Positions 8,564 to 43,024 of a stretch of 64,000 bases of DNA are shown here, one piece after another. The notes under the pieces are model-generated. The model saw only the letters and a list, made by a program, of their open reading frames with translations. It searched no databases and was not told the origin of the DNA. The stretch lies in NCBI RefSeq assembly GCF_965237845.1, contig NZ_OZ250154.1:259121-323120 (forward strand), given 5' to 3'. The stretch is from Candidatus Spongiihabitans sp. (GTDB lineage: Bacteria; Pseudomonadota; Gammaproteobacteria; Arenicellales; Poriferihabitantaceae). The position numbers were made by a program, and so were the translations under genes. Numbering within the stretch: the stretch's first letter is position 1; each line of letters begins with the position of its first letter.

Positions 8564-9214
8564 ATGACAGACAAAAACAAAAACGCTGGAGGCGCTGATT
8601 TTGGAAACACGGATTTGTGGCGTTCAAGGTTAAAACTAATTTTCATTTTTTTCCTGTTTCTTGGGCCGCTGTTGGTTGCATTCTTTTGGTACTACGGCTT
8701 AGGCGCCATATTGTTGCCGAAAGGGAAATCCAATCATGCTCCGCTGGTCAATCCGGTGGTCACTTTAACCCCATTCGAAAATAGTCTGTTCAACCACGGG
8801 CGCATTTCATCAGGAAGAATTTCACTTGAGTCGTTAAAACATAAATGGACCATCGTGCACTTGCTCAATTCCAACTGTGAGGCACAATGCCAAAAGTCCC
8901 TCTATAACACACGCCAAACGCGTATCGCCCTGGGCAAAGGCGCCGTGCGCGTGCAGCGCTATGTGGTTATCAATGACTCTGTATTGGCCGATGAAATTCA
9001 GCAACGCCACGCAGATGTTGTGCTGGTGAATCAATCCGGGGAAGGGCTGCAAAAACAATTGCAGCGGATTATTGAGCAACATAATATTGGCAGTGATGAT
9101 GCGCTATTAATTGACCCGGTGGGAAACGTAATGATGGTGATTCCCGTGGATCTGGATCCAAGGCTGTTGCTCAAAGACCTGAAGAAACTGCTTAAAGTGT
9201 CACGGATAGGTTGA
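8564..9214 (+). CDS. Membrane-anchored hypothetical protein, possibly SCO/thioredoxin-like
   Basis: 216 aa with an N-terminal TM helix and a CxxxC motif (NSNCEAQCQ) reminiscent of SCO/SenC copper chaperones. It ends the cox cluster. The assignment is tentative. Confidence 0.4.
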
Positions 9215-9272
9215 TAGAATAGACCTGTGCAAGCCCACAGCAATTTTATTTGGTGAAAAATCGCGCAATAAT

Positions 9273-10673
9273 ATGAATCAAAAAAAACCATGGGGAGGGC
9301 GCTTTTTAAGCGCCACCAATCGCCTGATGGAACAATTTTCCGCATCAGTTGGTTTCGACTGCCGATTATATCGACACGACATTGCTGGATCAATTGCCCA
9401 TGCGCGTATGCTCAGCCGCCAAGGTATTATTACTCAAATGGACTTTGATTCCATTGCAAAAGGATTGTTGGAAATCCAAGCTGAAATAGAAAACAACACC
9501 TTTGAATGGCGCGAAGGGCTTGAAGATGTTCACATGAATATTGAAGCGGCATTAACCTCAAGAATTGGCGAGGCCGGTAAAAAACTGCATACCGGGCGCT
9601 CGCGCAACGATCAGGTTGCCACCGACATGCGTTTATTTCTGAGGCAAGCGCTGGATGGGATATGCTTGCAATTGACCGAATTGCAACATGCGTTAATCAG
9701 ATTGGCCGAGCATGAGGCGGAAACTATCCTGCCCGGTTATACGCATATGCAGGCCGCTCAGCCGGTGATTTTGGGGCATCATATTCTGGCCTGGAACGAA
9801 ATGCTGCAACGTGATTTCGAACGGTTTCAGCAATGCAGGCAAAGGATAAATATTTGTCCGCTGGGCAGTGCGGCGCTGGCTGGCACCAGTTACCCCATAG
9901 ATCGGGAAATGACCGCCCAGGAACTCGGTTTCGAGGGTGTTAGTTTGAATTCGCTGGATGCGGTATCGGATCGTGATTTCATTATTGAATTTACCGCCCA
10001 TGCCGCACTGGCCATGATTCACTTATCGCGGGTCTCGGAAGAGTTGGTGCTGTGGTCATCCGATGCCTTTGGATTCGTAGATTTGGGCGACCAGTTTTGC
10101 ACCGGTTCGAGCATCATGCCACAGAAAAAAAATCCCGACGTTGCCGAGCTGACCCGAGGAAAAAGCGGGCGAGTTTGCGGTGATTTGATGTCGCTGTTAA
10201 TGTTAATGAAAGGGCAACCCCTAGCCTATAACCGAGATAATCAGGAAGATAAAGAGCCCCTGTTTGATACCGTCGATACGCTGCAACTCTGTTTGGGTGT
10301 TTTTTCGGCGATGTTTCCTGGGGTGAAATTTAACCGCGATAGAATGAATGCGGTGGCTGAAAAAGGATATTCCACGGCAACGGATTTGGCGGATTATCTG
10401 GCAAGGAAAAACATTCCGTTTCGGGATGCCCATGAAGTTGTTGGTAAGGTTGTCGGTTATGCCGTTGAACAAAGTGTGGCCTTGCCAGATATAGCGTTAA
10501 GTCAATTGCAAAAGTATTGCGCGGTGATTGAGCAAGATGTTTATGCTGTGTTGGACTTGCAGGGCTCGGTCAATGCGCGCGATCATATGGGCGGAACAGC
10601 GCCAAAACGGGTTAGGCAGGCGGCCGCGGCCGCACGAAAATTACTCGATGCAAGAAAGTCCAATTCAGGATAA
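9273..10673 (+). CDS. argH: Argininosuccinate lyase
   Basis: 466 aa with the fumarate-lyase signature [15 protein letters not shown] and N-terminal WGGRF. Confidence 0.95.
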
Positions 10674-10701
10674 AATCACAGGCGGATTCATCTCGGCCCA
10701 A

Positions 10702-10731
10702 GATATAAGCAATGACGATATAAGCAATGAC
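10702..10731 (+). repeat. Perfect 15-nt tandem duplication (gatataagcaatgac x2) in the argH-lptM spacer
   Basis: Read directly: 10702-10716 is identical to 10717-10731. Confidence 0.9.
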
Positions 10732-10778
10732 CAACCAAATATCCGCATCCCTAAGAATGTGATCCCCAAAAGGTATCA

Positions 10779-10943
10779 ATGAGAAGCGCCCTAATCTTGG
10801 TGATGGCGAGTTTTATGTTGTTGTCTGCTTGCGGGCAGAAAGGCCCGTTGTATTTGACCGAAGACCAAATTAGTGCAGAGCAGACTGAGCAAAAACAACA
10901 ACAAAAACAACAGAAACAACAAGGAGAAAAGACGACGGATTAG
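10779..10943 (+). CDS. lptM: Small lipoprotein LptM/YifL-like
   Basis: This 54-codon ORF is absent from the track. It has the lipobox LLSAC followed by GQKGPLYL, the signature of the small lipoprotein usually found just upstream of lysA/dapF. The Gln/Lys-rich tail is encoded by low-complexity caa/aaa sequence. Confidence 0.6.
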   Translation: MRSALILVMASFMLLSACGQKGPLYLTEDQISAEQTEQKQQQKQQKQQGEKTTD

Positions 10944-11040
10944 ATTATCGTTTTTAAGCATTAGATTCATTTTTCGGACGGCTGCGTAACCTCGCCACCT
11001 CAGTTTTCTAACCCAGTTTTCTAAACCATTCCAACCTCAA

Positions 11041-12294
11041 ATGGATTATTTCGAGTATAAAAACAGGCGGTTATTTGCCGAGCAAGTCGCCCTTGGCGAT
11101 ATTGCAGAACAAGTCGGCACGCCTTGTTTCGTATACTCCCGCGCAACCCTGGAAAGACATTGGAATGCATTCAACAATGCATTCGGCGACTATCCCCATC
11201 AAATTTGTTATGCGGTAAAAGCAAACGGCAATCTTGCTATCCTGAACTTACTCGCCAGATTAGGCTCTGGTTTTGATATTGTCTCTGCGGGGGAACTTAT
11301 GCGTGTTATGGAATCTGGCGGGGATCCAGCGAAGACAATTTTTTCTGGTGTGTGTAAACAGAGTTGGGAGATTCGCAATGCGCTGGAAGCAGGGATTCAT
11401 TGTTTTAACATCGAATCCGAAGGCGAGTTGCAACGCATCAGTGCGATTGCCGGGGAATCAGGCGTGCAGCCGCGGATATCGATACGGATAAATCCGGACG
11501 TGGATGCAAAAACCCACCCGTATATATCCACCGGTCTGCGGGAAAACAAATTCGGCTTGTCTCCCGCCCAAGCGCTGGAAATCTATACACAAGCATCTAA
11601 AGACAAAAATATTCAAATCCACGGCGTTGCCTGCCACATTGGCTCTCAGTTGACGGATTTATCGCCTTTCAAAGCCGCGTTGAACCGCACCTTGTATTTT
11701 GTTGGCCAACTTGAGCGCATTGGGATTGCAATCAGCCATCTTGATTTCGGTGGTGGATTGGGGGTGAGATACCGTGATGAACAGCCTCCCAGCCCCGATG
11801 AATACGGGCAAATGCTGCTTGACCAACTTAAACCCCGAGCCCGGCAAATTCCGGTTGTCATCGAACCCGGGCGGGCGATTATCGCCAATGCAGGAATTTT
11901 GCTAACCAGGGTGCATTATATCAAGAAAAGCGATGCCTCAAATTTTTGTATCGTTGACGCAGGAATGAACGATTTAATTCGGCCCGCGTTATATCAGGCG
12001 TATCAGGAAATAGTTGAAGTGGATAAAACCGGCAAAGTCGATCCCGATGTCTATGATGTCGTCGGGCCAGTTTGCGAAAGCAGCGATTTTCTGGGCACGC
12101 AACGACGATTAAGTGTTGCTGAGGACGATTTACTTGCGGTCAGAACCACGGGTGCTTATGCTGCGGTGATGAGTTCAAATTACAATGCCCGTCCGCGACC
12201 CGCTGAAGTCATGGTTGATGGCGATAAATTTCATGTTATTAAACCACGCGAAACTGTGGAATCACTCTATCAGGGAGAACAAATTCTGCCTTAG
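11041..12294 (+). CDS. lysA: Diaminopimelate decarboxylase
   Basis: 417 aa with the PLP lysine motif YAVKAN, plus EPGRAI and CESSD motifs. Confidence 0.95.
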   Translation: MDYFEYKNRRLFAEQVALGDIAEQVGTPCFVYSRATLERHWNAFNNAFGDYPHQICYAVKANGNLAILNLLARLGSGFDIVSAGELMRVMESGGDPAKTIFSGVCKQSWEIRNALEAGIHCFNIESEGELQRISAIAGESGVQPRISIRINPDVDAKTHPYISTGLRENKFGLSPAQALEIYTQASKDKNIQIHGVACHIGSQLTDLSPFKAALNRTLYFVGQLERIGIAISHLDFGGGLGVRYRDEQPPSPDEYGQMLLDQLKPRARQIPVVIEPGRAIIANAGILLTRVHYIKKSDASNFCIVDAGMNDLIRPALYQAYQEIVEVDKTGKVDPDVYDVVGPVCESSDFLGTQRRLSVAEDDLLAVRTTGAYAAVMSSNYNARPRPAEVMVDGDKFHVIKPRETVESLYQGEQILP

Positions 12295-12306
12295 CGTTGC
12301 GCTCGA

Positions 12307-13242
12307 TTACTGATTGGTGATGCCGCTGGGGACATGCCCGGTTGGGACGTGTTGGCGCGCAGATTCGCAATGACCGCGTTGATCGTCGAAGAAAATATCG
12401 GCATCGAAGGTGCGTAAAAACTCGCCTTTATCCATGCCGCCCAGAAAAAAGCTTTCATCAATCCTGATATTCCAGGCGCGCAGGGTTTTAATGACTCGTT
12501 CATGGGCGGGTGCGCCGCGGGCGGTAATCAAGGCCGTGCGAATAGGCGATTGCGGGTGGTTTTGTTGAATCCGGTGCAGCGCAGCCAATACATTCTTAAA
12601 CGGTCCTCCGAGCAAGGGCTGGTTGGCCGCTTGTTTTTCGGTTTCGCTGAATGCCGCAAGCCCTTGATTTTGAAACACCTGTTCTGCTTCATCCGAAAAC
12701 AAAACCGCATCGCCGTCAAACGCAATTTTCAGTTTGCCGGAATCCCGGTTATCCATCTGCGACGGCAAAATGGTGGCGGCGGCGCAGCCGGCGTCCAGAG
12801 CTTGACTGACGTCTGTCGGGTCAGCAGATAAAAATAAATCCGCATCAAATGGTTTGACGTACCGATACGGCGACCGCCCGCCGGTAAATACCGCGCGGGT
12901 GATATTCAGACCGTAGTGCTCAATGGAATTAAATACCCGCAAGCCGGTGTCGGCGCTGTTTCTGGAAATCAACACGATCTCGACATGCTGTCCGGCACGG
13001 TTATTTTCCAGCGCATTATGATTGTTGGCATCGTCGGTATCCGGTGTATCGTTCAGCGCCAAAAACTTTTTCACCATAGGGAAAGCCACGCCGGGATTCA
13101 GGGTTTCATTTTCGTGATCGATTTGATATTGGCAATAGGCATCGACACCCTGCCCGGTATAGACCGCATGACTTTCGGCCATATCGAACAGGGCGCGCGA
13201 TGAGATGGCGATTACCAGAGAATTTTCAAACGATTGCGCCAT
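12307..13242 (-). CDS. 5'-nucleotidase-like HAD-type hydrolase
   Basis: 311 aa. It resembles the bacterial cN-IA-like 5'-nucleotidase family as I remember it (IAISSRALFDM... and KIAFDGDAVLFSDE). Confidence 0.55.
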   Translation of the reverse strand: MAQSFENSLVIAISSRALFDMAESHAVYTGQGVDAYCQYQIDHENETLNPGVAFPMVKKFLALNDTPDTDDANNHNALENNRAGQHVEIVLISRNSADTGLRVFNSIEHYGLNITRAVFTGGRSPYRYVKPFDADLFLSADPTDVSQALDAGCAAATILPSQMDNRDSGKLKIAFDGDAVLFSDEAEQVFQNQGLAAFSETEKQAANQPLLGGPFKNVLAALHRIQQNHPQSPIRTALITARGAPAHERVIKTLRAWNIRIDESFFLGGMDKGEFLRTFDADIFFDDQRGHCESARQHVPTGHVPSGITNQ

Positions 13243-13257
13243 GTTCAGACCTGATGT

Positions 13258-14109
13258 TCAGAATCGACGTAGCGCATCAATGACCGACCGACTGTGCGGG
13301 CGTTTCTGGTGCCACACATAAAACGATTCAGCCGCTTGTTCGACCAGCATCCCCAATCCATCGTGCACCTGGGCGGCGCCATGTGCCAGCGCCCAATTCA
13401 TAAATATCGTAGGTTGTGCGCCATACATCATGTCATAGACCAGCGTGTTTTCAGAAACACACTTTTCGCTGAGCCCCGGTAGCTGCCCCTCCAGGCTGGT
13501 TGCGGTGCCATTTACAATTAAATCAAAAGACCTGTCAACCGCTTGATCGAGTCCCACCCCGTGCACCTCATTGCCGAACCTTTCACTCAATGCGGTTGCT
13601 TTATTAACCGTGCGGTTGGCGATGGTTATGCCTTTCGGCTGGCACGCCAATAGCGACCCAATCACCCCGCGCGCCGCGCCACCGGCGCCGACCACCAGAA
13701 CCGATTTATCCTGAATGGAAAAACCAATGTTGTTTTGCAGATCGGCCACCAATCCTGCGCCGTCGGTATTGTCGCCAAATACGCCACCCTGTTTTTCAAA
13801 TCGAAGTGTATTTACAGCCTGCGCCTGGCTTGCCCTGTGGCTAAGGGTATTTTGCCCTTGTTGACAAAACTGCCAAGCCTCAACTTTGTAAGGTACAGTA
13901 ATATTCAACCCGGCCCCGCCGCAAGCTGAAAAATGGCTAACCGCTTGATAAAAACCACCCACATCTACCTGAATCCGGTCATAGTCTATCGCAATACCGC
14001 ATTGTTGCGCAAATAAACTATGGATCTGCGGCGACTTGCTGTGTTGCACTGGATTGCCCATCACGGCGAAACTGGACGACTTTAATTTGAAGTCAAATAA
14101 ATCGGTCAT
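13258..14109 (-). CDS. aroE: Shikimate dehydrogenase
   Basis: 283 aa. Motifs: NPVQHSKSP, NTDG and the NADP-binding VVGAGGAARGV. Confidence 0.9.
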   Translation of the reverse strand: MTDLFDFKLKSSSFAVMGNPVQHSKSPQIHSLFAQQCGIAIDYDRIQVDVGGFYQAVSHFSACGGAGLNITVPYKVEAWQFCQQGQNTLSHRASQAQAVNTLRFEKQGGVFGDNTDGAGLVADLQNNIGFSIQDKSVLVVGAGGAARGVIGSLLACQPKGITIANRTVNKATALSERFGNEVHGVGLDQAVDRSFDLIVNGTATSLEGQLPGLSEKCVSENTLVYDMMYGAQPTIFMNWALAHGAAQVHDGLGMLVEQAAESFYVWHQKRPHSRSVIDALRRF

Positions 14110-14187
14110 GATAATCGGGCATGATAAAGAATGTTGCTAAAGGAAGTTTCCAATAATATTTTCTGGATATTTTCCGGCTCAACCCTA

Positions 14188-14802
14188 TCACACTTCCTCA
14201 AACAGGATAAAAACCGGGCCGTCGCAGTCAATGCAAATGGTGCCAGCACCCACATTACTCAAGCCCAAAGAGCTCAAAGGCATAAATTTGGTGGTTTGCG
14301 GACAAGGATAGCGGCAATCGCCGGTTATGCCGACCCGTGTTTGTTCGACTACCGAAACGCTAAAGCCGCCGATGCGCTCGAACCGCCATTGCCCGGAGGA
14401 ATAGCCAACAATATCATTGTCAAATTTAATCGTCGTCGGAGATTTTCTGGCGCGCAAGAAATGATGCGATTCGCCGATATTGAATAATTCATGATCGCGT
14501 CGTCCACCGAGAAATCCGATTAAATTCACTTCGCCGAAATGTTCAGGAATATGGCCAAGGGCAAAAGCCAGGTCAGAAAAATCCTTGCTTGGATTCAGCG
14601 GAACATCGATCATGCCTTCAAAAGAATCACCATCCCCTACCGAAATGCCTTCTCCCGATTTTCGCAAGCGCGCGCCGCGGTCCACGAAGATTACAGGTTC
14701 TTCAATACCCTGAACATTGTCATGGACATTTTCATAAAAAGGCCCCACCAACGTAATGTGCAGGCTGTTTTTGAAGTTGCTTAGATATTTTTCGATGGTC
14801 AT
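14188..14802 (-). CDS. Thiamine pyrophosphokinase-like protein
   Basis: 204 aa. GDGDSF, SKDFSDL and GGRRDHEL match the TPK catalytic pattern GDxDS...KDxTD...GGRxDH. Confidence 0.5.
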   Translation of the reverse strand: MTIEKYLSNFKNSLHITLVGPFYENVHDNVQGIEEPVIFVDRGARLRKSGEGISVGDGDSFEGMIDVPLNPSKDFSDLAFALGHIPEHFGEVNLIGFLGGRRDHELFNIGESHHFLRARKSPTTIKFDNDIVGYSSGQWRFERIGGFSVSVVEQTRVGITGDCRYPCPQTTKFMPLSSLGLSNVGAGTICIDCDGPVFILFEEV

Positions 14803-14863
14803 TGAAGCGGTGAAAATTTAGAACGACAGGGCCGTATTCGGTTAAGCGCTCGGTTAAGCAATA

Positions 14864-15811
14864 CTATAGACATCGGGCAGGTAAATTAAAAGGGCATGCA
14901 AAAGCCGGCAGCACAAAGAGAGCGCTGGGCCGACAAGCGGAGCGCCTGATGATCGTTGAAAACAATAGTGATAAGTCATCGGGCCGATAACCACTCCAAC
15001 GGGCCACCAATCTCTGCCTGAAATAACAGATCATTCTGCCATCGGCGCCGCTGGTTGCCGATTTACCCCATGATTTACCCCAAGGCGCAACACCGTGCAT
15101 AGCTAAACGGTGGACAACAAACGCTTGGCCGGGTTTTACCGCGATCTCCACTCGTTTACAGGTGGCGAATACATTTTTACGGGTGCGTTGATAAATCTCG
15201 GTAACATCTTCGTCGCCCCACTTGTCCGGCGCCAGGCCCTTAAAGCGTGTGCCGAATGCCGTGCGGACAATTTCATGAGATTTCTCCCAGACAACAAACG
15301 GCGAAGCATCCGCGCTGAAATCAACCAGCGGAATGCCCAGAATAAAACCATGATGCTCGCGCAGATGGCGGCGCCGAGCGGTGCCTTCAGCGCGCAAGCC
15401 ATCGACATGGGCGGCATCGCAGTCACGGCGATACCGAAAGGCGGCGCTGGATTCCGATTCCATCGGCTGAGGATAACCCGGGTAGCATACCGAGATCTGC
15501 CCGCGGTCCAGATCGAAATTTGACAGCCCCAGGCAATGTCGAATAAATTCCACCGCAGCGCCTTGCAGTGGTGCGCAGTCGCCTAGCGCGCCAGAAGCCG
15601 AGTTTGGCAGTACGTTCACGCCAGCGAACCAGGTACCGCCACAACGCAACCATTGTGCGTTTTCCTGTTTGCTAACCGCTTCACGCGCTTCAGGCAACGC
15701 GCATTTAACCCATTCGGCGAGCGCGCCGTCGTATTTGAATTTGCGCCAGCCTTGTTTAAAAAATGATTCAGCGTTCATAACGACAACCCCGCGCAAACCC
15801 TGGACGGTCAT
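14864..15811 (-). CDS. Hypothetical protein, possible 2-His-1-carboxylate (cupin/2OG-oxygenase-like) enzyme
   Basis: AAHVDG and a later HRLAMHG could form an HxD...H triad. The likely real start is ATG 15775 (MNAESFF). The last ~50 residues look like low-quality read-through. Confidence 0.4.
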   Translation of the reverse strand: MTVQGLRGVVVMNAESFFKQGWRKFKYDGALAEWVKCALPEAREAVSKQENAQWLRCGGTWFAGVNVLPNSASGALGDCAPLQGAAVEFIRHCLGLSNFDLDRGQISVCYPGYPQPMESESSAAFRYRRDCDAAHVDGLRAEGTARRRHLREHHGFILGIPLVDFSADASPFVVWEKSHEIVRTAFGTRFKGLAPDKWGDEDVTEIYQRTRKNVFATCKRVEIAVKPGQAFVVHRLAMHGVAPWGKSWGKSATSGADGRMICYFRQRLVARWSGYRPDDLSLLFSTIIRRSACRPSALFVLPAFACPFNLPARCL

Positions 15812-15856
15812 TTCAACTGAGTGGATTGAGAGTTGATAATGGGGTCTGTTGAAAAT

Positions 15857-18814
15857 CTATGCGACGCGGAAAATATCTCCAGGTTGTTCGGTCCAATAGC
15901 GACGGTATTGCCCGGAAGCTTTTTGGGGGTCGTTGAACATGAAAAGCTTCACCTGGACCCCAGCCTTGCCGTGGCGGAAAAAACGGGGTTTTTCATCCTC
16001 TTCAAACAGCTCTTTGTAACCGTCTATTCTGCGCTCGGCGGCAGTGTATTCGGTTCCCTTCGGATCCACAAACACGATACGGTATTCATTTCCCTTACAC
16101 ATCCAGAAAACAAAATCAGGCAGAAAACGGCGGTAATCGTTGTTACCTCTATCATAGTAAGGAATGTGAACATCGTCCAAGGACTCGTCTATTTTGCTGA
16201 ACATCCAAGCATCCCACGGTACCTTGTTTCTCTCCACCCATTTTTCCAGTGCATTAAGAAAACTGACCTCGCTATTGACTTTGATTATATGCTGTATGTA
16301 ATCGGTTGTCTCGTTCCCCAGAAGCACGGGAAAGTAATAGTGTTGAGCAACCCTTTTGATCGTCAGCTCCCTGAAAGTCTCTTCATTTTTTCCTGAAGAC
16401 TTCTTAGTAAACTCTTCCCGCGTTATCTCACCCAGTCCAAGTTGCTGACCTAATTTGCTTATCTCTCCATCGGACACCTCACCTTGCCTGACCCGGTTAA
16501 GTCTTTCTTTAAGATCGTTGACGTATTCAGAATGGACACGAATATGACGGAAGTGAACAATATCTTTTTTGCCAAGCGCCCGAACGCCATCAGACACCTT
16601 TGCCGTTTTAGAAAGGTGGGATATAAGACGGTGTTGCAAAAAAGGAATCATCGCATAGTTCTTTTCCGGGGTGAGTTGTATTTTCTCCGTATTTTTTACC
16701 ATGCTGCGCAATGCAGCAATCTGGGATGTTTTAAGCCCATCTCGAACTGCAAACACTGCATCGGATGTTGTTTCCATATAACTTTTGAGTCTGTTCAGGG
16801 TTTTCTCGCTCATGGCGAATTTTCCTTGTGCGGCTGCGCCATCTTTCGCTTCTTTGTATTCGGGAACCAGCAACGGCATATTTTTATTGCCGATTTTCGG
16901 TATTGGCGCCCTTTCAAAACCTTCCAGGATTTCAAAGTCTCCACTTTCTCCATATTCCGCCGCCAACCCTTCCAGCACCGCCTTGACGGCACTTCGGTTG
17001 GTCGCAAAAAGAAACAAGGTTTCCAGCGGCTGTACCTGGTCGTGATAAGGCTGAATGGCCTTTTTCTCATTACTCTCAGGCAAACGGGCAAACCGGCGGC
17101 GTTGATTGGGCAACGGCTCTATCCGTACGCCTCGCCCGACCGACTGCACCACAAACTTCTTGGCGTCTTTCCCGCCGATGTTGATGAAGTTGATCACGTT
17201 GGGGCGGTTGGAATCCCAACTTTCAAAGAATGATCGCGAGCCCATCAGGATGGTTATTCGGCTTTTCTCCAAGCCCTCAAAAAACGATTTCCCTTGCAAT
17301 GCGGTTGTTTCTTCAAATCCATCGAGCAATATATTGCGCCATTTGGATGTATCGCCGATGCGTATCAAGGCAAAAGGCGAGTCGGCGTTTTTTAATTGAA
17401 ACGCCAGTTCCTTGTTATCTTCGCTGCGGATGAATTGCAATGCTCCCTTTGCGCGGCTCAGAAAAACCGCTTCGCGCAAATCGGTTATTTTCATTTTGCC
17501 GATGACATCTTCATCGGTTCCAATAATTCCAGCGCCATTCCCGCCGAAAAGAAGCCTTGCGTTTCTCCAATTATCCATCAATTCGGTTTTCGCCTCTTTG
17601 AAAAGCGATTGGTCAATCTCTCCAGTGGCAATTTCGCGCAAGGTTTGAAAAAACGCCCACAAATCATTCTGGTCGTTTTCAATGTCGGTATTGACGGAAT
17701 TAACCAAGGTCAGCATCAGCGGCAGATGGTAAAGGTTTTCCAACCCCGTGCCGATGCGAAGCGCCTTGACCCGCATAGATACATAAGCCAGCGTGATAAG
17801 CGACTTCAGGACAATTTTTCGTCTTTCCGCGTGGCTGATTTCCTCTTTCCTGTTTTTGAATGCGTTGTACTCGGTTTCATTCAAGTAAATGTTTTTGCCA
17901 TGTCCGTTTTTTACAAACTCTTCCAAATTGTATTTTTTAACGGTCGTTATGATGTCCTCTTTATCGGTAAAAGTTGCGGAGAAGTTAAACAGAAAACCCT
18001 CGCGCGCCATAATCGCGTAATACGCCTGCCGTTTGGAATCCTCCTTGCTGCCCTTGTGTGCCTCATCCAGCAGGATGAACCATTTGCCTCCGTTTTCATA
18101 TGTGCGATAATCAATCAACGCCTCTTTCTGAACATCGGAAATGTTGTCGCTGCGGTGGTAATAAACCACTATCGAATCGCCGACCCTGTGCTGATACGAC
18201 CCCCTGCCCGCTTGACGCAAAGGAACCAAATCTATTTGCAATCCGCTACTTCGGTTGAATTCGTCAATGGTGCGGCGTATCTGCCCAATCAAGCCACCGC
18301 TGCTCGGAGCGAGGATAAGAATGTTATGCGGTGGAATTTCGCCATGTTGCTGCAAATGACGCAAGTATTCAATCAATTTAACCATCACCAACGTCTTGCC
18401 GCTTCCGGTGGCCATCCAAAAGCACATTCGGTTTATCAGGTTGGCATATGGGATTAAATCGCCCAATGGGCGCATGAACTCCGACAATAGGCGAAATACT
18501 TGGCTTTCCCTCTTGTTCTTTTCATCGGCACGGGTTTCGTATTTTTTAAGATACGCAGACAAGCTGGAATCTCTGTATAAATCCATGAAAAACCTTTTGC
18601 GTTCATTGCTTGTCTCCTGGGTTTCACCGGAAAACCAATCATGATCTTTCCCATAATAAAGATAAAACGCGCGCGCGGCTTTTTCCAAAGCGTCTGTTTG
18701 GTAGCCGTATAGGGTTTTTTCGGAAGAAAACCGGTGAATATCAGGCACGCGCCAAGTTTCGGGGAGGTCTCCGTAGTTCAGGGATTCGCTGATAAGTTCA
18801 AGATGTGTTTGCAT
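15857..18814 (-). CDS. res: Type III restriction enzyme Res-like subunit (SF2 DEAH helicase with C-terminal PD-DxK nuclease)
   Basis: 985 aa. Helicase motifs: I ATGSGKT, Ia ILILAPS, II LLDEAHKG, III NFSAT, VI QSVGRGVR. The C-terminal nuclease motif is LPDFVFW...IVFVDPKG. It is the last gene of the mod operon and its start overlaps the previous ORF by 17 nt. Confidence 0.8.
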   Translation of the reverse strand: MQTHLELISESLNYGDLPETWRVPDIHRFSSEKTLYGYQTDALEKAARAFYLYYGKDHDWFSGETQETSNERKRFFMDLYRDSSLSAYLKKYETRADEKNKRESQVFRLLSEFMRPLGDLIPYANLINRMCFWMATGSGKTLVMVKLIEYLRHLQQHGEIPPHNILILAPSSGGLIGQIRRTIDEFNRSSGLQIDLVPLRQAGRGSYQHRVGDSIVVYYHRSDNISDVQKEALIDYRTYENGGKWFILLDEAHKGSKEDSKRQAYYAIMAREGFLFNFSATFTDKEDIITTVKKYNLEEFVKNGHGKNIYLNETEYNAFKNRKEEISHAERRKIVLKSLITLAYVSMRVKALRIGTGLENLYHLPLMLTLVNSVNTDIENDQNDLWAFFQTLREIATGEIDQSLFKEAKTELMDNWRNARLLFGGNGAGIIGTDEDVIGKMKITDLREAVFLSRAKGALQFIRSEDNKELAFQLKNADSPFALIRIGDTSKWRNILLDGFEETTALQGKSFFEGLEKSRITILMGSRSFFESWDSNRPNVINFINIGGKDAKKFVVQSVGRGVRIEPLPNQRRRFARLPESNEKKAIQPYHDQVQPLETLFLFATNRSAVKAVLEGLAAEYGESGDFEILEGFERAPIPKIGNKNMPLLVPEYKEAKDGAAAQGKFAMSEKTLNRLKSYMETTSDAVFAVRDGLKTSQIAALRSMVKNTEKIQLTPEKNYAMIPFLQHRLISHLSKTAKVSDGVRALGKKDIVHFRHIRVHSEYVNDLKERLNRVRQGEVSDGEISKLGQQLGLGEITREEFTKKSSGKNEETFRELTIKRVAQHYYFPVLLGNETTDYIQHIIKVNSEVSFLNALEKWVERNKVPWDAWMFSKIDESLDDVHIPYYDRGNNDYRRFLPDFVFWMCKGNEYRIVFVDPKGTEYTAAERRIDGYKELFEEDEKPRFFRHGKAGVQVKLFMFNDPQKASGQYRRYWTEQPGDIFRVA

Positions 18815-19361
18815 TTGCTGACAGTTTTTTAGCCAAAATCTCGGATGGTATTATTTCAACATCGCCTACCACTTTCTTTGTTAATACTCCGCGCAAATCA
18901 TCAAGCAGGTAGCTAGCCAAATATTCAACAACCCCTCTTGTTTCCTCTGCGTCTACACCATCTATAACAAGCCAAAAATCATGCTTTTTATCTTTCATGC
19001 GTTTTGCAGCATCCTTGCATTTTGCAGCTAAACGACACAGAACAAGCAAACTTCCATATACTTTCACGTAATTTTCTTGTCTAACATTTTTAACAACACA
19101 ATCCTTCTTGTCATCATCATTAAGATATGAATATTGTTCTTCAATGGCTTTAATAGTATCCGCCAAACGAGTTTCTTCGACAACAAAAATTTTGTTATCA
19201 TTAATAAAAAAATAATCGCAACAGTTGCAGCTTCCCAAACCCACATCTGCCCTCATATCGGGCATCTCTACCGATTTTGTTGTGTTATCCATACGAAAAA
19301 CATCAACTTCTTTCCCGTTCGAGTCTGGTCTTACTTCCCGAAATTGACCAAGAAATGTCAT
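18798..19361 (-). CDS. 187-aa orphan protein, unknown family (possible degenerate PD-(D/E)xK fold)
   Basis: AAGGGG lies 5 nt upstream of its ATG, which has an ATGA overlap with the ATPase stop. The ORF is very AT-rich. The only motif-like feature is CDYFFINDNKIFVVEETR (D...ExR). It has no HNH or Toprim signatures. Confidence 0.6.
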   Translation of the reverse strand: MTFLGQFREVRPDSNGKEVDVFRMDNTTKSVEMPDMRADVGLGSCNCCDYFFINDNKIFVVEETRLADTIKAIEEQYSYLNDDDKKDCVVKNVRQENYVKVYGSLLVLCRLAAKCKDAAKRMKDKKHDFWLVIDGVDAEETRGVVEYLASYLLDDLRGVLTKKVVGDVEIIPSEILAKKLSANANTS

Positions 19362-20746
19362 AAAAGCCCCTTGATATACAAATCAGAAAACGGTTTTGTC
19401 AGTTCCTGCTTTATCCTTGCCAATTTAATGTCAAAATCGCTCTCACCATCTATAACTCCTTGATGTGAAAAATGATTTAATGCCACCAATTCCTCATATT
19501 CTGGATTTTTCTTTACTGCCACTTCAAGGAATTTAAGAATATCGGCACTGTGGGTGGCGATGACAACGTTAACGCCGCCTTTCGCCAATTCAAACAGGGT
19601 TTCAGCCATAACGACCTGCCACCCCGGGTGCAGATGCGCTTCCGGTTCGTCAATGAAAATAAAGGAATCCTCGTCCAGCACCTTGCGCTCAATCAACAGC
19701 GCCAAAACACCGAGGTTGGCAACTCCCATGGCGGTTACGGGCAAAGAGAAACTACGGCCATTTTCCTGGAATGATAAATCGCCGCTTTCGGAAAGTGCGA
19801 TTTTTCCGCCGAGAATATTCTCGCCAGTCAATTTTTCATATACATCCGGGAAAGCCATATCACCGGTGTATTGATACTTGAGCGCGCTTGCCAGATCATA
19901 AAAATATCCCGGAATCCCACTGATTCGTTCTCTGCTGCTATGCAGGTGCCTCGGAGATAGGCGAATGTCCTCCAAAGCGTTTTTTAATTTCCAGTAAACA
20001 GGGGATTCCAGATAAATCACTTTGGAATATTGTTGTAATTCCTGCAATCCAAACCGAGGTATGCTGAACTCAATTTCTCCATTTGAGAATTCAAATTTTC
20101 CAAGATAATCACTCACAACTTCCGATGACCGGTCTTCTTTGCCTCTCAGATCGGAAAGCTTTGGCACTTGAAAATTTTGAATCAGATTCTCTTTAATTTT
20201 ATATGCTATCCCGGAAACAATAAATTCTTTCGCATTTTTGTCGCTGAGTTCTTCTTGCAACTTGGTCAAAGATTGTTCCTCACCCTTCAAAGTATCTTTC
20301 ATTAAGGAACGGGAACCGTCCAGATCCGGCGATGCCATAGATTCCAGTTCTAAAATCAGTTTAGAGAGAGTTGCCTGTATCTCTTTCGCCTTGTTAGCAA
20401 GATCAGGCATGATTTTGTCCAACTGTTTAAAGTCTCCGATTGGGGAATCTATGATCATATCTTGCAACACTCTAATTCTCTCGTATAGCGGAAATAGCGA
20501 CACTCTTTCCCCCTCTGAATCCTCCAAATCTTTTAGATTACCAATACTATGTAAAAGATGTGCGGTGAGATTATTTATATGCTCCTTAGCATGATTCGCA
20601 TTCATCGAGTTAAAAAGCGAATACAAAACCTTAGAAACAAAACTTTTGCCGGTGTTATTCGGTCCGGCGAACACAGTGAATTGCCCGATGCGAATTTTCG
20701 CATCGGCAAGTTTGCCGATATTCTTGATTTTCAGTTCAAAAGCCAT
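19358..20746 (-). CDS. ABC/SMC-like AAA15/AAA21-family ATPase
   Basis: 462 aa. Motifs: Walker A GPNNTGKS, Walker B/D-loop FIFIDEPEAHLHP, H-loop IATHS. A coiled-coil-like insertion rich in E/K/L lies between the two halves. An AGGGGA SD lies 6 nt upstream of the ATG. Confidence 0.8.
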   Translation of the reverse strand: MAFELKIKNIGKLADAKIRIGQFTVFAGPNNTGKSFVSKVLYSLFNSMNANHAKEHINNLTAHLLHSIGNLKDLEDSEGERVSLFPLYERIRVLQDMIIDSPIGDFKQLDKIMPDLANKAKEIQATLSKLILELESMASPDLDGSRSLMKDTLKGEEQSLTKLQEELSDKNAKEFIVSGIAYKIKENLIQNFQVPKLSDLRGKEDRSSEVVSDYLGKFEFSNGEIEFSIPRFGLQELQQYSKVIYLESPVYWKLKNALEDIRLSPRHLHSSRERISGIPGYFYDLASALKYQYTGDMAFPDVYEKLTGENILGGKIALSESGDLSFQENGRSFSLPVTAMGVANLGVLALLIERKVLDEDSFIFIDEPEAHLHPGWQVVMAETLFELAKGGVNVVIATHSADILKFLEVAVKKNPEYEELVALNHFSHQGVIDGESDFDIKLARIKQELTKPFSDLYIKGLL

Positions 20747-20782
20747 GATGCATCCCCTAAGTGCAAAAGCATTGTTATTCTA

Positions 20783-23401
20783 TCACTCCCCCCACCACAA
20801 GTAGGGCTTGATTAGGGATATGAAATGCCGCTTTTCCTGCTCCGTCATTTTTGTCGTATCTATTTTTTCAATGCTCCCGTCCTCAAAGGTTACCGTGTCC
20901 GCGGTGCGATGGCGGATTTGTTTGCCGAGGATGTTGGAGAGTGATTCGGCGATGTCTATGTCGGGGTAGAGGTTGTGCAGGTTGATTTTTAGTTTGCCGT
21001 TTTTCAGGGGTTTGACGGCGTGGGCGAGTTTGTCATCGCCGAAGAAGACATATTGTTCAAACGGCGATTTCGCGCTGTCCAGTTCCAACTGTTCGCCGTC
21101 CTCGTAGCGGGCGTTTTTCAGGGATTCTTCGTATTGTTCCAGCGTGTAGTATTTGAGGCAGTGGCTGCTGCCCTCGCGGGAAACGGGCTTGCCGTCTTTC
21201 CAGTCTTTGGAATAGACAACTTTTTTTATCCGTGGAAGCAGAACCGTATGGAAGTACTCTCCCATTTCAATAAGCAGATATTTTCGCTCTCCGCCATCTT
21301 CACGGTTTAGATTTATTACTGCATGAGCAGTGGTACCGGAGCCGGCGAAGTAGTCGAGAATATTCCCCGAACCAGACTCCGCCCCAGAGCCTATCAGTCC
21401 GGTATAGAAAAAAACCGAGTGGCAGTACGGGAAATTCTTCAGTCCCAATTTATCAAGGTCTGACTTGCCTCGTCTAGCATCTGGCATAACAGAACTTATC
21501 TGATACTTTGAACCATCCTCTAAAATCCGCTTTTGCCTTGGTTGAGTGGTTTCATCTGAGCCGAAAAGAATCTCTCCTTTATCAATCATTTTTTGAAGGG
21601 TTTCAGGGGTGCGAGAAAAACCATTTGGCGGAACAGCGCATGGTTTGCCAGTAACAGGATGTATCAGCGGGATAAAGAATTTTTTGTCTGTTCGTGGTTC
21701 TGGCGCCCTGAGACTAACGTCACGATAAACTAATCCCTCGTCATCTAAGAAACGGCAAGCTTGCTCACCCCCACTTAATTTGGAATTTCTAGAAACCCAT
21801 TCGGCATATTGTTTTTTTGCTGTGTCAGTAACGCCATCGTTTCGCTTAATAATTGCTTCTGCTTTTGCCAGCATGATTTTGATATTTTTACTTTGAGCAT
21901 TGAAGGTTTGATCTGTCTTCATTCTGAAGATTACATACTCGTGTTGCTTTGCTATACCGCTGCCTCCAGTCATAGGATTCCTCTTATCCCAAATCACAGT
22001 CCCGGCATTCAGCAAGCCGCTATTATCCATAAGCAAATGCAGTCTCTCGTATTCATTTTCATCAATATGGCACAAAAATGATCCGTCATCCGAGAGCCAC
22101 CCCAAAGAACAGTGAACACGATTGTCCATCATCGTCAGCCAACTGGAATGTTTGTAATCATTACGATAAAGAAAGCCGCTGGTTTTCGTATTGTATGGTG
22201 GGTCAATGTGAATACACTTCACCTTCTCCCTATAACGCTTTTGCAAACTATTCAACGCCTGCCAATTCTCGCTATGCACCAACTCCCCGTCCAGCACTTC
22301 ATCCAAGTTACCCAAGCAACCAAGAATATCCAATTCCAAATCCTTGAAATGCGCGGTATCAAGCGGCAGAAATTGACACTCGCCGCTTGCGCCGTTTTTG
22401 TCGGCCAGACTTTTCTGTCCGTTGAAAATCGCGGTCATTGAAAACTGATTATCCACCATCCCCAACTCGCGCCATTCTTTTATCTGCGCTTTTGCCCCTT
22501 GATGTTTTATTATCTTGTTCAGAACCCCGTCCGCCAGTTTGTCCAACGTGACGACATAATTGACATTACGCACAAACTTCGGCTTCTCCCATACCCGACA
22601 AAGTTCATCTTCAAACTGCGCGATGAAGTCAATGATGTTATAGGCGGTGTCCTTGATCGCCTGAATCTGCCGAATTCTTTTTTCCTCGAAGACGGTTTCT
22701 TCCTGAAAAATGTATTGATACACCCACAAGTCAAACTGCTCGTGCAAAAAGCCTCTTGCGTCTTTGTTGATGAAAAAGTTGGCTTCGGTCTGCCGCTGGA
22801 ATACACCGATGGCTTTTTGCAATTCATCCTTGGACAGCGGGATTCTTTCTTTTCGGCATTGTTTGAGAATTTCATCGGCCCTGGTTTTAGCGCCGTTTTT
22901 GGAATACGAAACCTTGAAGTGAATAACCCATCCTTTCGGCGATCTTTTCACTTCGTCAAAGGCAAAAACGAATTCTTTCCGCTCGTTATTTTTCTTGTGC
23001 TCAACCTCGGAAGCGTCAAAATACAAAAGCCGAGTGTTTTGCGGCATTCCCTCTTCGTTCAACTCAACCGGCATGGAGCGCACCAGCACGTCGGATTTAA
23101 CGTAGTAAAGCATCTGCGTTTTCCACGACAGGGCGACATCCTGCCCATCGGCATACACGCGCTCGTAGGTTTTTGAGAAAGCTGGCAGGTGGCGGAAGTA
23201 GATCGAGCCGCTTTCGCAGAAGTAGCGGTTGAAGAAGGTATAGAGTTTGTCGAAAAGTTCTTCGCGGAATGAAGTCTGCCGTTCGGCGCGACGATCAATC
23301 TCCGCCATCAGTTGCGGGCGGATGGAACGAAAATAGGCGCGCTTCATCCGCATCAAATTAACAAAGCCGGAGTCGCCGTCCACTTCGGCGCCGGTGAACA
23401 T
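20783..23401 (-). CDS. mod: Type III-like Mod DNA methyltransferase (beta-class N6-adenine/N4-cytosine)
   Basis: 872 aa. Motif [11 protein letters not shown] lies ~290 residues upstream of motif [15 protein letters not shown], which is the beta-class order. The N-terminal extension is ~390 aa. There is no SD before ATG 23401, and the frame stays open 33 codons further upstream (stop at 23501-23503), so the start is uncertain. Confidence 0.8.
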
Positions 23402-23619
23402 GGATTCGAGCGCGTCCAGGAAGCGTTTTTCTTTGGTGTTGATATTCCGTCCTCGTATTGTTTGATTACGTCGATTGAGCGTGTCTGTTATCGAAAAAAT
23501 TCAGGGATATTGTACCTTGCATTCAACTTTGAAGCGCAACTCATCCACAAGGTCGGGCAGGCAAAGCAAGGGCAGAAGTCAATTTAAGGTTGCGGCATAA
23601 GCCACGGGTGTCTCACTGG

Positions 23620-23642
23620 ATTATCGGGTTGAGCCCGATAAT
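23620..23642. other. Perfect 9-bp inverted repeat (attatcggg / cccgataat) with a 5-nt loop
   Basis: Read directly in the 416-nt non-coding stretch at the right edge of island 1. Function unknown. Confidence 0.6.
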
Positions 23643-23859
23643 GATGGGCGCAGAGCGGAGCCGAGTCAATGCGCATTTTTGTTCAATAGCCGGCATGCGG
23701 TTTTGGCAATACGCTTTGATTACGATTTCCAAACAGGATAAACTGCAACCCAGCCTTATTTACCTGCATAAAATTAACGATTGAAATGAGTAGTTCGATT
23801 TACAAAATCAGTTCGTCTTGGTGCCATTTCCGAGTTGGCTTTTCGGGAAATTCGTGTTA

Positions 23860-41935: not shown

Positions 41936-43024
41936 ATGAACAACATTCTGGTGGTAGGCCCGGCCTGGGTCGGCGACATGGTAATGGCGCAAAGTCTGTT
42001 CAAGGCACTTAAGCGCGCGCAGGCCGATGCTCAGGTCGATGCTCAGGCCGATGCTCAGGCCGATAACGAGATCAGCGTGCTGGCGCCGCCGTGGAGTATC
42101 CCGATACTGGCGCGTATGCCGGAAGTCGCTCATACGATTCGCATGACCGTCGGCCACGGCGCGCTCGGGCTGGGCGCGCGACATAAGATAGGACGCCAAC
42201 TGCGACGCTCGAATTTCGACCATGCCATCGTCGTGCCGAATTCGTTCAAGTCGGCGCTGGTGCCGTGGTTCGCCAAAATTCCGCGTCGCACCGGTTATCT
42301 CGGCGAGCAGCGCTGGGGTTTGCTGAATGACATTCGTATCCTCGACCGGCGGGTGATGCCGCTGAATGTGCAGCGCTTTGTCGCCTTGGGCTTGCCAAAA
42401 TCATCGACCGCCAACGCCGTCGAAACCCTGCAATCTACGGACCTTCCCAAGCCGGCGCTGGCGGTGAATCGGGAGTTGGTTGGCGAGACCGCGGCGCGTT
42501 TCAAACTGCAGACCGACGCGCCGGTGCTGGCGCTTTGTCCGGGCGCCGAGTATGGGCCGGCCAAGCAATGGCCGGCGGCGCATTTCGCCGAAGTCGCCAA
42601 CGCGCAACTCGCACAGGGTTGGCGGGTGTGGCTGTTCGGCTCGGACAATGATCGGCAAATCGCCGCGCGCATCAACCAACTTTGCCAACGGCGCTGCGCC
42701 GATCTTGCCGGCCGCACCTCGCTGGGCGAAGCGATTGATTTGATGTCGCTGGCGAAGTATGCGGTCACCAATGATTCCGGATTGATGCACATCGCCGCCG
42801 CCGTTGGCTGCCATGTGATTGCTATCTACGGCTCGTCCAGCGACGCCTTCACCCCGCCGCTGACCGAGCACTGCGACTGCCTCACCCTGCGCCTCGAATG
42901 CAGTCCTTGCTTCCAGCGCGAGTGCCCGCTCGACCATCTGAATTGTTTGAATCAATTGATGCCAAAAAAGGTTTTAGACATCATCAAAAAAATGGGCAAT
43001 AAAATTGGCGATGGATTAGGGTGA
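41936..43024 (+). CDS. waaF: ADP-heptose:LPS heptosyltransferase II
   Basis: 362-aa GT9 protein with VVGPAWVGDMVMAQSL and NDSGLMHIAAAVG. Confidence 0.85.
   Translation: MNNILVVGPAWVGDMVMAQSLFKALKRAQADAQVDAQADAQADNEISVLAPPWSIPILARMPEVAHTIRMTVGHGALGLGARHKIGRQLRRSNFDHAIVVPNSFKSALVPWFAKIPRRTGYLGEQRWGLLNDIRILDRRVMPLNVQRFVALGLPKSSTANAVETLQSTDLPKPALAVNRELVGETAARFKLQTDAPVLALCPGAEYGPAKQWPAAHFAEVANAQLAQGWRVWLFGSDNDRQIAARINQLCQRRCADLAGRTSLGEAIDLMSLAKYAVTNDSGLMHIAAAVGCHVIAIYGSSSDAFTPPLTEHCDCLTLRLECSPCFQRECPLDHLNCLNQLMPKKVLDIIKKMGNKIGDGLG
42017..42064 (+). repeat. 12-nt tandem repeat x4 in frame in waaF, encoding (AQAD)4
   Basis: Read directly: gcgcaggccgat / gctcaggtcgat / gctcaggccgat / gctcaggccgat. 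It sits in the loop before the conserved LAPPW motif. Confidence 0.9.

Follow-up and report, generated by a model that had tools for sequence, protein, structure and literature searches.

The stretch of DNA analysed here, referred to as the window, comprises 64,000 nucleotides of Candidatus Spongiihabitans sp. (assembly GCF_965237845.1, contig NZ_OZ250154.1, positions 259,121 to 323,120 of the forward strand). It contains an operon in which the mod and res genes of a type III-like restriction-modification (R-M) system enclose a gene for an ABC-type ATPase and a gene for a small protein of 187 amino acids (aa), named ORF187. The coordinates, motifs and junctions of the four genes had been described in a first-pass annotation made from the sequence alone, and all of them were recovered from the open reading frame (ORF) listing of the window and a reading of the DNA, with the four ORFs on the same strand and tightly coupled. 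In window coordinates, from 5' to 3' along the minus strand, the locus comprises:

23402..23817, minus strand: region 5' of mod, presumed to be the operon promoter region, with mod-like codons at 23402-23446 inside it
20783..23401, minus strand: mod, 872 aa, beta-class N6/N4 DNA methyltransferase of the type III-like R-M system
20747..20782, minus strand: spacer between mod and the ATPase gene, 36 nt, with AGGGGA 6 nt 5' of the ATPase ATG
19358..20746, minus strand: ATPase, 462 aa, ABC-type (SMC/PtuA/AriA-like), with a helical insert (about residues 50-190), proposed to act as sensor or scaffold in the pair
18798..19361, minus strand: ORF187, 187 aa, small partner, proposed divergent HEC-02B-like (PD-(D/E)xK-type) effector
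15857..18814, minus strand: res, 985 aa, restriction subunit of the superfamily 2 (SF2) helicase type, with PD...DxK at its C-terminus

The stop codon of the ATPase gene and the start codon of ORF187 overlap by 4 nt in an ATGA, the ATG of res lies 17 nt inside ORF187, and no GGAG-like or other Shine-Dalgarno-like sequence (SD) is found ahead of the res ATG. A reliance of res on translational coupling, as first proposed, fits this arrangement, and res overlaps the preceding gene across the R-M family of the window; its coupling to whichever gene precedes it is a general property of this family. The GC content of the four genes is 42-46%, compared with roughly 47-55% in the flanking housekeeping genes, which fits horizontal acquisition.

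The two outer genes resemble those of canonical type III systems (EcoP15I-like Mod2Res) in several respects. Enzymes of that type need two unmethylated sites in inverse orientation for their ATP-dependent cleavage, and their Mod hemimethylates the DNA. In the translation of mod, the DPPY motif lies upstream of FAGSGTT, which is the motif IV before motif I (FxGxG) order of beta-class type III methyltransferases, and the protein matches PF01555 in Pfam (3.4e-25) and the PADLOC MTase_III model PDLC03638 (1.1e-192, residues 1-844 on profile 15-807 of 816). Res carries the motifs ATGSGKT, LLDEAHKG, NFSAT, QSVGRGVR and PDF...VDPKG, that is, an SF2 helicase-type ATPase followed by a C-terminal PD-(D/E)xK motif, and ATGSGKT, DEAH, SAT, QxxGRxxR and PDF...VDPKG are invariant among its relatives in the Res alignment. 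Moreover, mod lies 5' of res, and the two are translationally coupled in insert-free relatives. Unlike the canonical systems, the window Res matches ResIII (2e-13) and DEAD (8.5e-6) in Pfam but only weakly and partially REase_III (PDLC03654, 2.6e-19) in PADLOC, and it has no sequence match among solved structures; for these two reasons the host system is called type III-like here. In the window, mod and res are split by two genes, and about one third of the Mod-Res family bears cargo at this junction. A further ORF of 187 aa (15833-16396, plus strand) runs antisense to the 3' end of res; it shows no sign of being a gene, and its match in length with ORF187 is coincidental.

The start of mod deserves a comment. 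Homologues of Mod begin about 15 codons farther upstream than the ATG of the window, and their 15-residue N-terminal peptide is kept in frame at 23402-23446 of the minus strand, yet this segment contains no ATG, GTG or TTG. The native start may be situated some 15 codons 5' of this ATG. Either a non-canonical codon, such as ATC at 23443, serves as the start, or the native start has been lost recently. An identical pattern, with the upstream peptide and no canonical start, is found in three other loci (L153, L025 and L018).

The translation of the ATPase gene contains GPNNTGKS, FIFIDEPEAHLHP and ATHS, and matches AAA_15 (3e-19) and AAA_21 (3.2e-13) in Pfam. The best of its 134 PADLOC matches is HEC-02A (PDLC04214, 7e-32), where residues 184-421 cover only positions 65-299 of the 338 in the profile, and the next are NsnB, PD-T4-4_A and PDC-M47A. 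A full-length match to phrog_14430 (7e-77) was also obtained. When the AlphaFold (AF2) model of the ATPase (pLDDT, predicted local distance difference test, 81.9) was compared with PDB structures using Foldseek, the top matches, with a probability of 1.0, were PtuA from Septu and retron effector complexes, SMC heads, AriA and GajA; the best of these were PtuA chains (8eea, 8sux, 9e91, 9kjy and others), at E values of about 1e-5. At the sequence level, the likeness to PtuA is confined to the region from Walker B to the H-loop, and the sole match among solved structures is to AriA (8ux9, E=3.4e-4, residues 336-417). The predicted fold points to a defence-type ABC ATPase with a helical insert. 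A single weak match to the ATPase was found in the phage collection, and exact-sequence look-ups of the window ATPase and of the window ORF187 found neither on record. In some near-identical contigs with a stand-alone pair (L154, L157), the ATPase is split into two ORFs, which may be real pseudogenisation or a long-read assembly error.

ORF187 had been regarded as an orphan in the first-pass annotation, and this stands in so far as the window protein alone has no Pfam, NCBIfam or PADLOC match (PADLOC at E<=0.1), only non-significant PHROG matches (E about 0.01 or worse) and no significant fold match, and its profile retrieves only spurious MafB matches (E about 0.016) from solved structures. 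The label does not extend to the family as a whole, since its consensus and 14 of 74 members (10, 3 and 1 on three PADLOC models) match HEC-02B, the partner of HEC-02A. These member matches are weak, with a best E value of 1.3e-4, and the consensus match is collinear (E=6.4e-4, residues 38-157 on profile 31-151 of 173). In addition, 5 of the 74 members match PDC-M47B in PADLOC. A word-indexed search found homologues in 95 clusters, and an exhaustive profile search of 1.84 billion cluster representatives (50% identity clusters) found 272 relatives at E<=1e-3, almost all of them stand-alone proteins of 180-220 aa. The family is thus real, conserved and rare. One member of 445 aa with an ORF187 domain (P0220) was considered as a natural fusion and rejected, as a deletion joins the N-terminal half of the ATPase to ORF187.

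The family alignment shows L42, C48, D49, E62 and K100 to be invariant and C45, C47 and C109 nearly so, with the consensus GLGxCNCCDY...IEETxL...ENxLKVYGSLLVLCRL. In the AF2 model of ORF187 (pLDDT 87.7, predicted template modelling score 0.84), D49 is located at the start of a strand, E62 at the end of the next strand and K100 on the long helix that follows, an order that would be compatible with a PD-(D/E)xK core in which the lysine has been relocated. The four cysteines, arranged as CxCC (C45, C47, C48) plus one on the long helix (C109), suggest a zinc or iron-sulphur site. Their pattern is unlike the iron-staple pattern of Cas4/AddB.

The distribution of the pair was surveyed in an ORF187-anchored census, in which one genome per GTDB species was scanned and 70 loci were returned. 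A full-length ATPase gene lies directly 5' of ORF187 in 66 of them, the other four being contig-cut or degraded, and independent gene calls in other loci also give ATPase/ORF187 overlaps of 4 nt or 1 nt. Intact Mod and Res of the window type flank the pair in only eight loci (L003, L006, L018, L020, L023, L025, L027 and L035). In another four (L026, L042, L045 and L069), the pair is intact and accompanied only by remnants of the Mod C-terminus and/or the Res N-terminus, including a fragmented Res with a piece of about 500 aa in L042 and a Mod remnant of 17 aa in L069; one locus, L004, is cut by the contig end. The remaining 57 have no window-type Mod or Res homologue beside the pair, and many of these are flanked by sulfatase, enolase-superfamily, ffh, ilvB/ilvC, gatA/gatB, arg or proteasome genes. 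With regard to the hosts, the ORF187 family is almost confined to sponge-associated metagenome-assembled genomes (MAGs) of many phyla, with representatives in Latescibacterota, Poriferihabitaceae, Porifericomitaceae, Arenicellales, Nitrospira, Ca. Spongiihabitans and Porisulfidus, and a tblastn search with ORF187 returned no match in the phage and plasmid collections. Taken together, the near-confinement to sponge MAGs and the lack of phage or plasmid relatives suggest a habitat-restricted horizontal spread.

The four-gene arrangement of the window is not unique. Look-ups that started from ATPase homologues found the identical gene order, including the 17-nt overlap between ORF187 and res, in the independent metagenome contigs L162 and L164; the arrangement begins in the same way in L165, a shorter contig, and L166 carries a stand-alone pair. 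In L003, the order is the same except that mod and the ATPase gene are separated by an additional PD-T7-4-like gene. The further cargo found between mod and res in loci with the pair varies, and includes PD-T7-4 (3.9e-73), PtuA-like and AriA/NsnB-like ATPases, Schlafen/AlbA_2 proteins and a ParA-like gene.

The reciprocal question, what lies between mod and res in relatives of the host system, was approached from Res. A plasmid tblastn search returned two full-length relatives. Athalassotoga pATS2 has no insert, its mod and res overlapping by 4 nt, and in Rhodothermus marinus pRHOM17201 there is a two-gene cargo (a nucleotidyltransferase and a hypothetical protein) that overlaps res by 4 nt. 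A Res-anchored metagenome scan, which took in relatives at only about 40% identity, yielded 503 related stretches, of which 80 were kept. Among the 75 plasmid and metagenome loci holding both genes, mod and res are directly adjacent in 49, so that adjacency is the normal state of this R-M family. The other 26 contain inserts of 143-5073 nt, and the ATPase-ORF187 pair was found in none of these 26. The sampled inserts encode MNT-HEPN pairs, an OLD-type ATPase-Toprim protein, SMC/AAA_21 ATPases, Schlafen/AlbA_2-HATPase_c_4 proteins, Fic and DUF805. The adjacency in most loci and the variety of inserts in the others identify the mod-res junction of this family as a recurrent embedding site for cargo of the toxin-antitoxin (TA) or defence type. 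Moreover, in three loci with the pair (L018, L025 and L035), cargo cassettes are separated by fragments, just 3' of ORF187 and 5' of the ATPase gene, in which about 58-64 aa of the Res N-terminus precede about 20-150 aa of the Mod C-terminus. These fragments look like scars of recombination that joined or swapped Mod-cargo-Res loci.

The cargo and res evolve independently, as is apparent from the end-to-end alignment of the window with L004, a contig of Ca. Spongiihabitans thiooxidans. The DNA identity is a mosaic (window 8816-19201): in the chromosomal flanks most 300-nt windows agree at 85-95%, the 3' part of ORF187 reaches 98%, and res drops to 65-78%. The restriction gene has thus been replaced at an otherwise conserved locus; the two genomes share the insertion site and the cargo, but the restriction allele has been swapped. 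In a quick neighbour-joining tree of the ATPase, all embedded copies fall in one major clade, where they are interleaved with stand-alone copies, and the stand-alone L002 and the embedded L003 are sisters with downstream genes in common. This interleaving and sisterhood argue for the repeated gain or loss of the R-M flanks of the pair. Finally, the pair outlasts the decay of the R-M genes in L026, L042, L045 and L069.

The surroundings of the island add little to this picture. A single promoter-like match lies 5' of mod (23669-23641), but sites of this kind show no enrichment relative to shuffled sequence; nothing informative came from searches around the island for boundary repeats, tRNAs and Rfam families, or for enriched promoter or terminator signals. 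Elsewhere in the window, the 1-kb bin at 42001-43000 has a GC content of 61%, against about 46-54% in the neighbouring bins.

The combined evidence is best explained, with a probability of roughly 0.7, by an autonomous defence module, consisting of an ABC ATPase and a small nuclease-like ORF187, embedded at the mod-res junction of a two-gene type III-like operon. The two genes of the pair form a translationally coupled unit of their own, found in most cases without R-M genes of the window type. This agrees with one of the two possibilities raised in the first-pass annotation, a nested second defence module, as the pair is a conserved unit mostly found away from such R-M genes. As in other cases of embedded defence, the cargo lies on the same strand between R-M genes, and non-embedded homologues exist. 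Since HEC-02A and PDC-M47A are among the top matches of the ATPase, and HEC-02B and PDC-M47B are matched within the ORF187 family, the pair is read as a remote relative of HEC-02, and is probably an anti-phage system.

HEC-02 (Hma-embedded candidate 02) consists of the ABC ATPase HEC-02A and the NERD-like PD-(D/E)xK protein HEC-02B, was found embedded in Hma, and requires both genes for phage defence in E. coli (Payne et al., bioRxiv 10.1101/2024.01.29.577857). The two pairs have several features in common: the ATPase gene comes first and is followed by a small partner of similar size (173 positions in the HEC-02B profile, 187 aa in ORF187), the best PADLOC match of the ATPase is HEC-02A and the ORF187 consensus is collinear with HEC-02B, and both pairs sit inside another methylase-containing defence operon. 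They differ in that the window ORF187 falls short of the HEC-02B models and has no Pfam NERD match, in that a conserved threonine of ORF187 replaces the lysine of the (D/E/Q)xK signature and an invariant lysine is found on the next helix, and in that the ORF187 family bears a conserved CxCC...C cysteine set. Furthermore, the host here is a type III-like R-M system instead of Hma, and the ORF187 family is found almost only in MAGs of sponge symbionts.

Other ATPase-effector systems are less close. Septu (PtuA/PtuB) and the retron-associated PtuAB also pair an ABC ATPase with a helical insert with a small nuclease, a role that is here proposed for ORF187; however, ORF187 is not an HNH protein, only one of the 74 family members has a weak PtuB match, and the pair lacks a PtuB partner. 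PARIS (AriA/AriB) likewise combines an ABC ATPase with a small effector, often in R-M or defence hotspots, but no DUF4435, Toprim or AriB match was found with Pfam and PADLOC in ORF187 or its family, the pair lacks an AriB partner, and no evidence of an Ocr-type trigger exists for the window pair. Two of the known partner families with which ORF187 might have been identified at first reading, AriB/DUF4435 and the HNH protein PtuB, thus gave no confident match in Pfam or PADLOC.

By analogy with HEC-02, Septu and PARIS, an oligomer of the ATPase would hold or control ORF187 and sense a phage cue. Once triggered, ORF187 would act as the effector, most likely as a metal-dependent, divergent nuclease of the PD-(D/E)xK type that uses D49, E62 and K100, while C45, C47, C48 and C109 may serve as a metal site. 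The result would be abortive infection or breakdown of the invader nucleic acid, and the pair would act independently of the R-M system. Its embedding would allow the pair to be transcribed from the R-M operon and co-transferred horizontally, with res coupled to the gene that precedes it.

Several observations weigh against this reading, some of them against the nuclease assignment and others against the independence of the pair. The link to HEC-02B is marginal, given the E values of its best matches (1.3e-4 for a member, 6.4e-4 for the consensus), and the window ORF187 itself reaches no PADLOC model. The (D/E/Q)xK signature of HEC-02B is absent, as the aligned strand of ORF187 reads E62-E63-T64 with a nearly invariant T64; a relocated lysine is possible, as D49, E62 and K100 are invariant. 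No recurrent Pfam family and no NERD match were found in the 74 members or their consensus. A Foldseek search of the PDB and BFVD with the ORF187 model returned nothing at E<=0.001, and the low-probability matches were limited to XPF/Mus81/Zip2-Spo16 (template modelling score about 0.36) and assorted viral endonucleases. As for independence, symbionts from several phyla, as well as independent metagenomes, retain the four-gene composite with its 17-nt overlap, and this conservation means that some functional synergy of the pair with the R-M system could be selected. The pair is also often found directly 5' of another methyltransferase-like gene, either a different Mod'/Res' (L050 and L058) or a gene called C8 in eight Latescibacterota loci (L028, L033, L039, L043, L047, L048, L052 and L065, e.g. 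L065:10419-13319).

The C8 protein has roughly 966 aa, and its gene starts within about 13-30 nt of ORF187 in most of its eight loci. It has no Pfam domain and no sequence match in the PDB. A DLACGTG motif is present, its weak PADLOC matches are to MTase_II, mad2 and DrmMI, and the protein may represent a large restriction enzyme of the methyltransferase type or a BREX-like one. The possibility that C8 is a diverged Res was rejected, since BLASTP found no similarity. The neighbouring genes C4, C6 and C7 of the Latescibacterota loci were likewise rejected as a type I R-M system, as Pfam assigns them to an F5/8-type-C protein, a sulfatase and an enolase-superfamily enzyme.

The main rival explanation takes up the possible synergy with the host. 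The pair would be silent while Mod and Res are intact and would be activated once the R-M system is inhibited by an anti-restriction protein of a phage, giving a two-layer system in the style of PrrC-EcoprrI or PARIS-Ocr. PrrC in the EcoprrI type Ic R-M system is the paradigm of functional coupling between cargo and host (PMC12707154), and it resembles the present case in that a defence gene with an ABC-type ATPase domain is nested among the genes of an R-M operon. Nevertheless, PrrC is one polypeptide carrying an anticodon-nuclease domain, it is hosted by a type I and not a type III-like system, and the window pair is mostly found without any such R-M system. A guarding role, a concept reviewed in PMC12707154 and discussed in bioRxiv 10.1101/2024.01.29.577857, would agree with the embedded position in a single operon, with the composite and its junction conserved across phyla, with the repeated proximity of the pair to methyltransferase-type systems and with an ATPase that shares its broad ABC class with AriA and PtuA. 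It seems unlikely, as the pair mostly occurs with no R-M system of this kind alongside, which argues against an obligate coupling, the pair outlives the decay of the R-M genes, and res was swapped while ORF187 remained 98% identical; in addition, neither a PrrC-type anticodon-nuclease domain nor an AriB/Toprim domain was detected in the pair with Pfam and PADLOC. The conflict with an autonomous module is only partial, since a PARIS-like guardian needs no R-M linkage. One may go further and regard the junction as a dedicated cassette-exchange site and the pair as a new guardian that senses the inhibition of methylase-linked restriction, its effector being a nuclease-like protein, rich in Cys and not described before, that is largely restricted to sponge symbionts. 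If the junction were such a site, the repeated Res-Mod scars would indicate that modules are swapped by recombination of R-M loci while res remains translationally coupled. This joint reading appears doubtful to a similar degree.

The first-pass annotation had also considered a genuine four-component system, in which the ATPase and ORF187 would be subunits or regulators of the type III enzyme and would, for instance, gate Res or load it onto DNA. The tight coupling of all four genes, the lack of an SD of its own for res and the recurrence of the order in L162, L164 and, with the extra PD-T7-4-like gene, L003 speak in its favour. The neighbourhood census, however, gave the outcome that the annotation itself had set against such a system: no insert separates mod from res in 49 of 75 relatives, unrelated cargo lies between them in the other 26, and 57 of the 70 pair loci have no window-type Mod or Res. 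The extra mod-res cargo varies even where the pair is present, and ORF187 and res evolve at discordant rates. A four-component restriction machine is therefore highly improbable. Somewhat less remote, although still quite improbable, is a pair without a defence function, either a selfish element (toxin-antitoxin or addiction module) or a housekeeping ATPase for DNA repair with its adaptor, with ORF187 as a non-catalytic regulator that has a structural Cys4 metal site. ORF187 has no significant nuclease family or fold match and lacks the canonical lysine, its four conserved cysteines suggest a structural metal site, and many copies of the pair lie among housekeeping genes. Set against this, the nearest relatives of the ATPase by profile and by fold are all defence ATPases, the mod-res junction is shared with known defence and TA cargo, the pair has a patchy, mobile distribution and lies in a low-GC island, and the invariant D49, E62 and K100 fall on the beta-beta-alpha elements expected to bear PD-(D/E)xK residues.

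The claim that the arrangement was without precedent proved overstated, as ABC-ATPase defence modules embedded in Hma, BREX, DISARM and type I R-M loci have been published (bioRxiv 10.1101/2024.01.29.577857). Type III R-M loci are not among the systems surveyed in that study. What is new here is the type III-like host with its busy mod-res junction, a partner protein too diverged for current models, and the near-confinement to sponge symbionts. The principle of embedding is thereby extended to a type III-like R-M family, about one third of whose members carry varied cargo between mod and res. For annotation purposes, the locus should not be labelled as a four-subunit restriction enzyme. The mod-res junction offers a cheap hotspot for the mining of defence systems, and the pair itself is a compact two-gene candidate with clear targets for point mutants. 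An unannotated family of small proteins, with 272 clusters at 50% identity, emerges as a candidate effector of ABC-ATPase defence systems.

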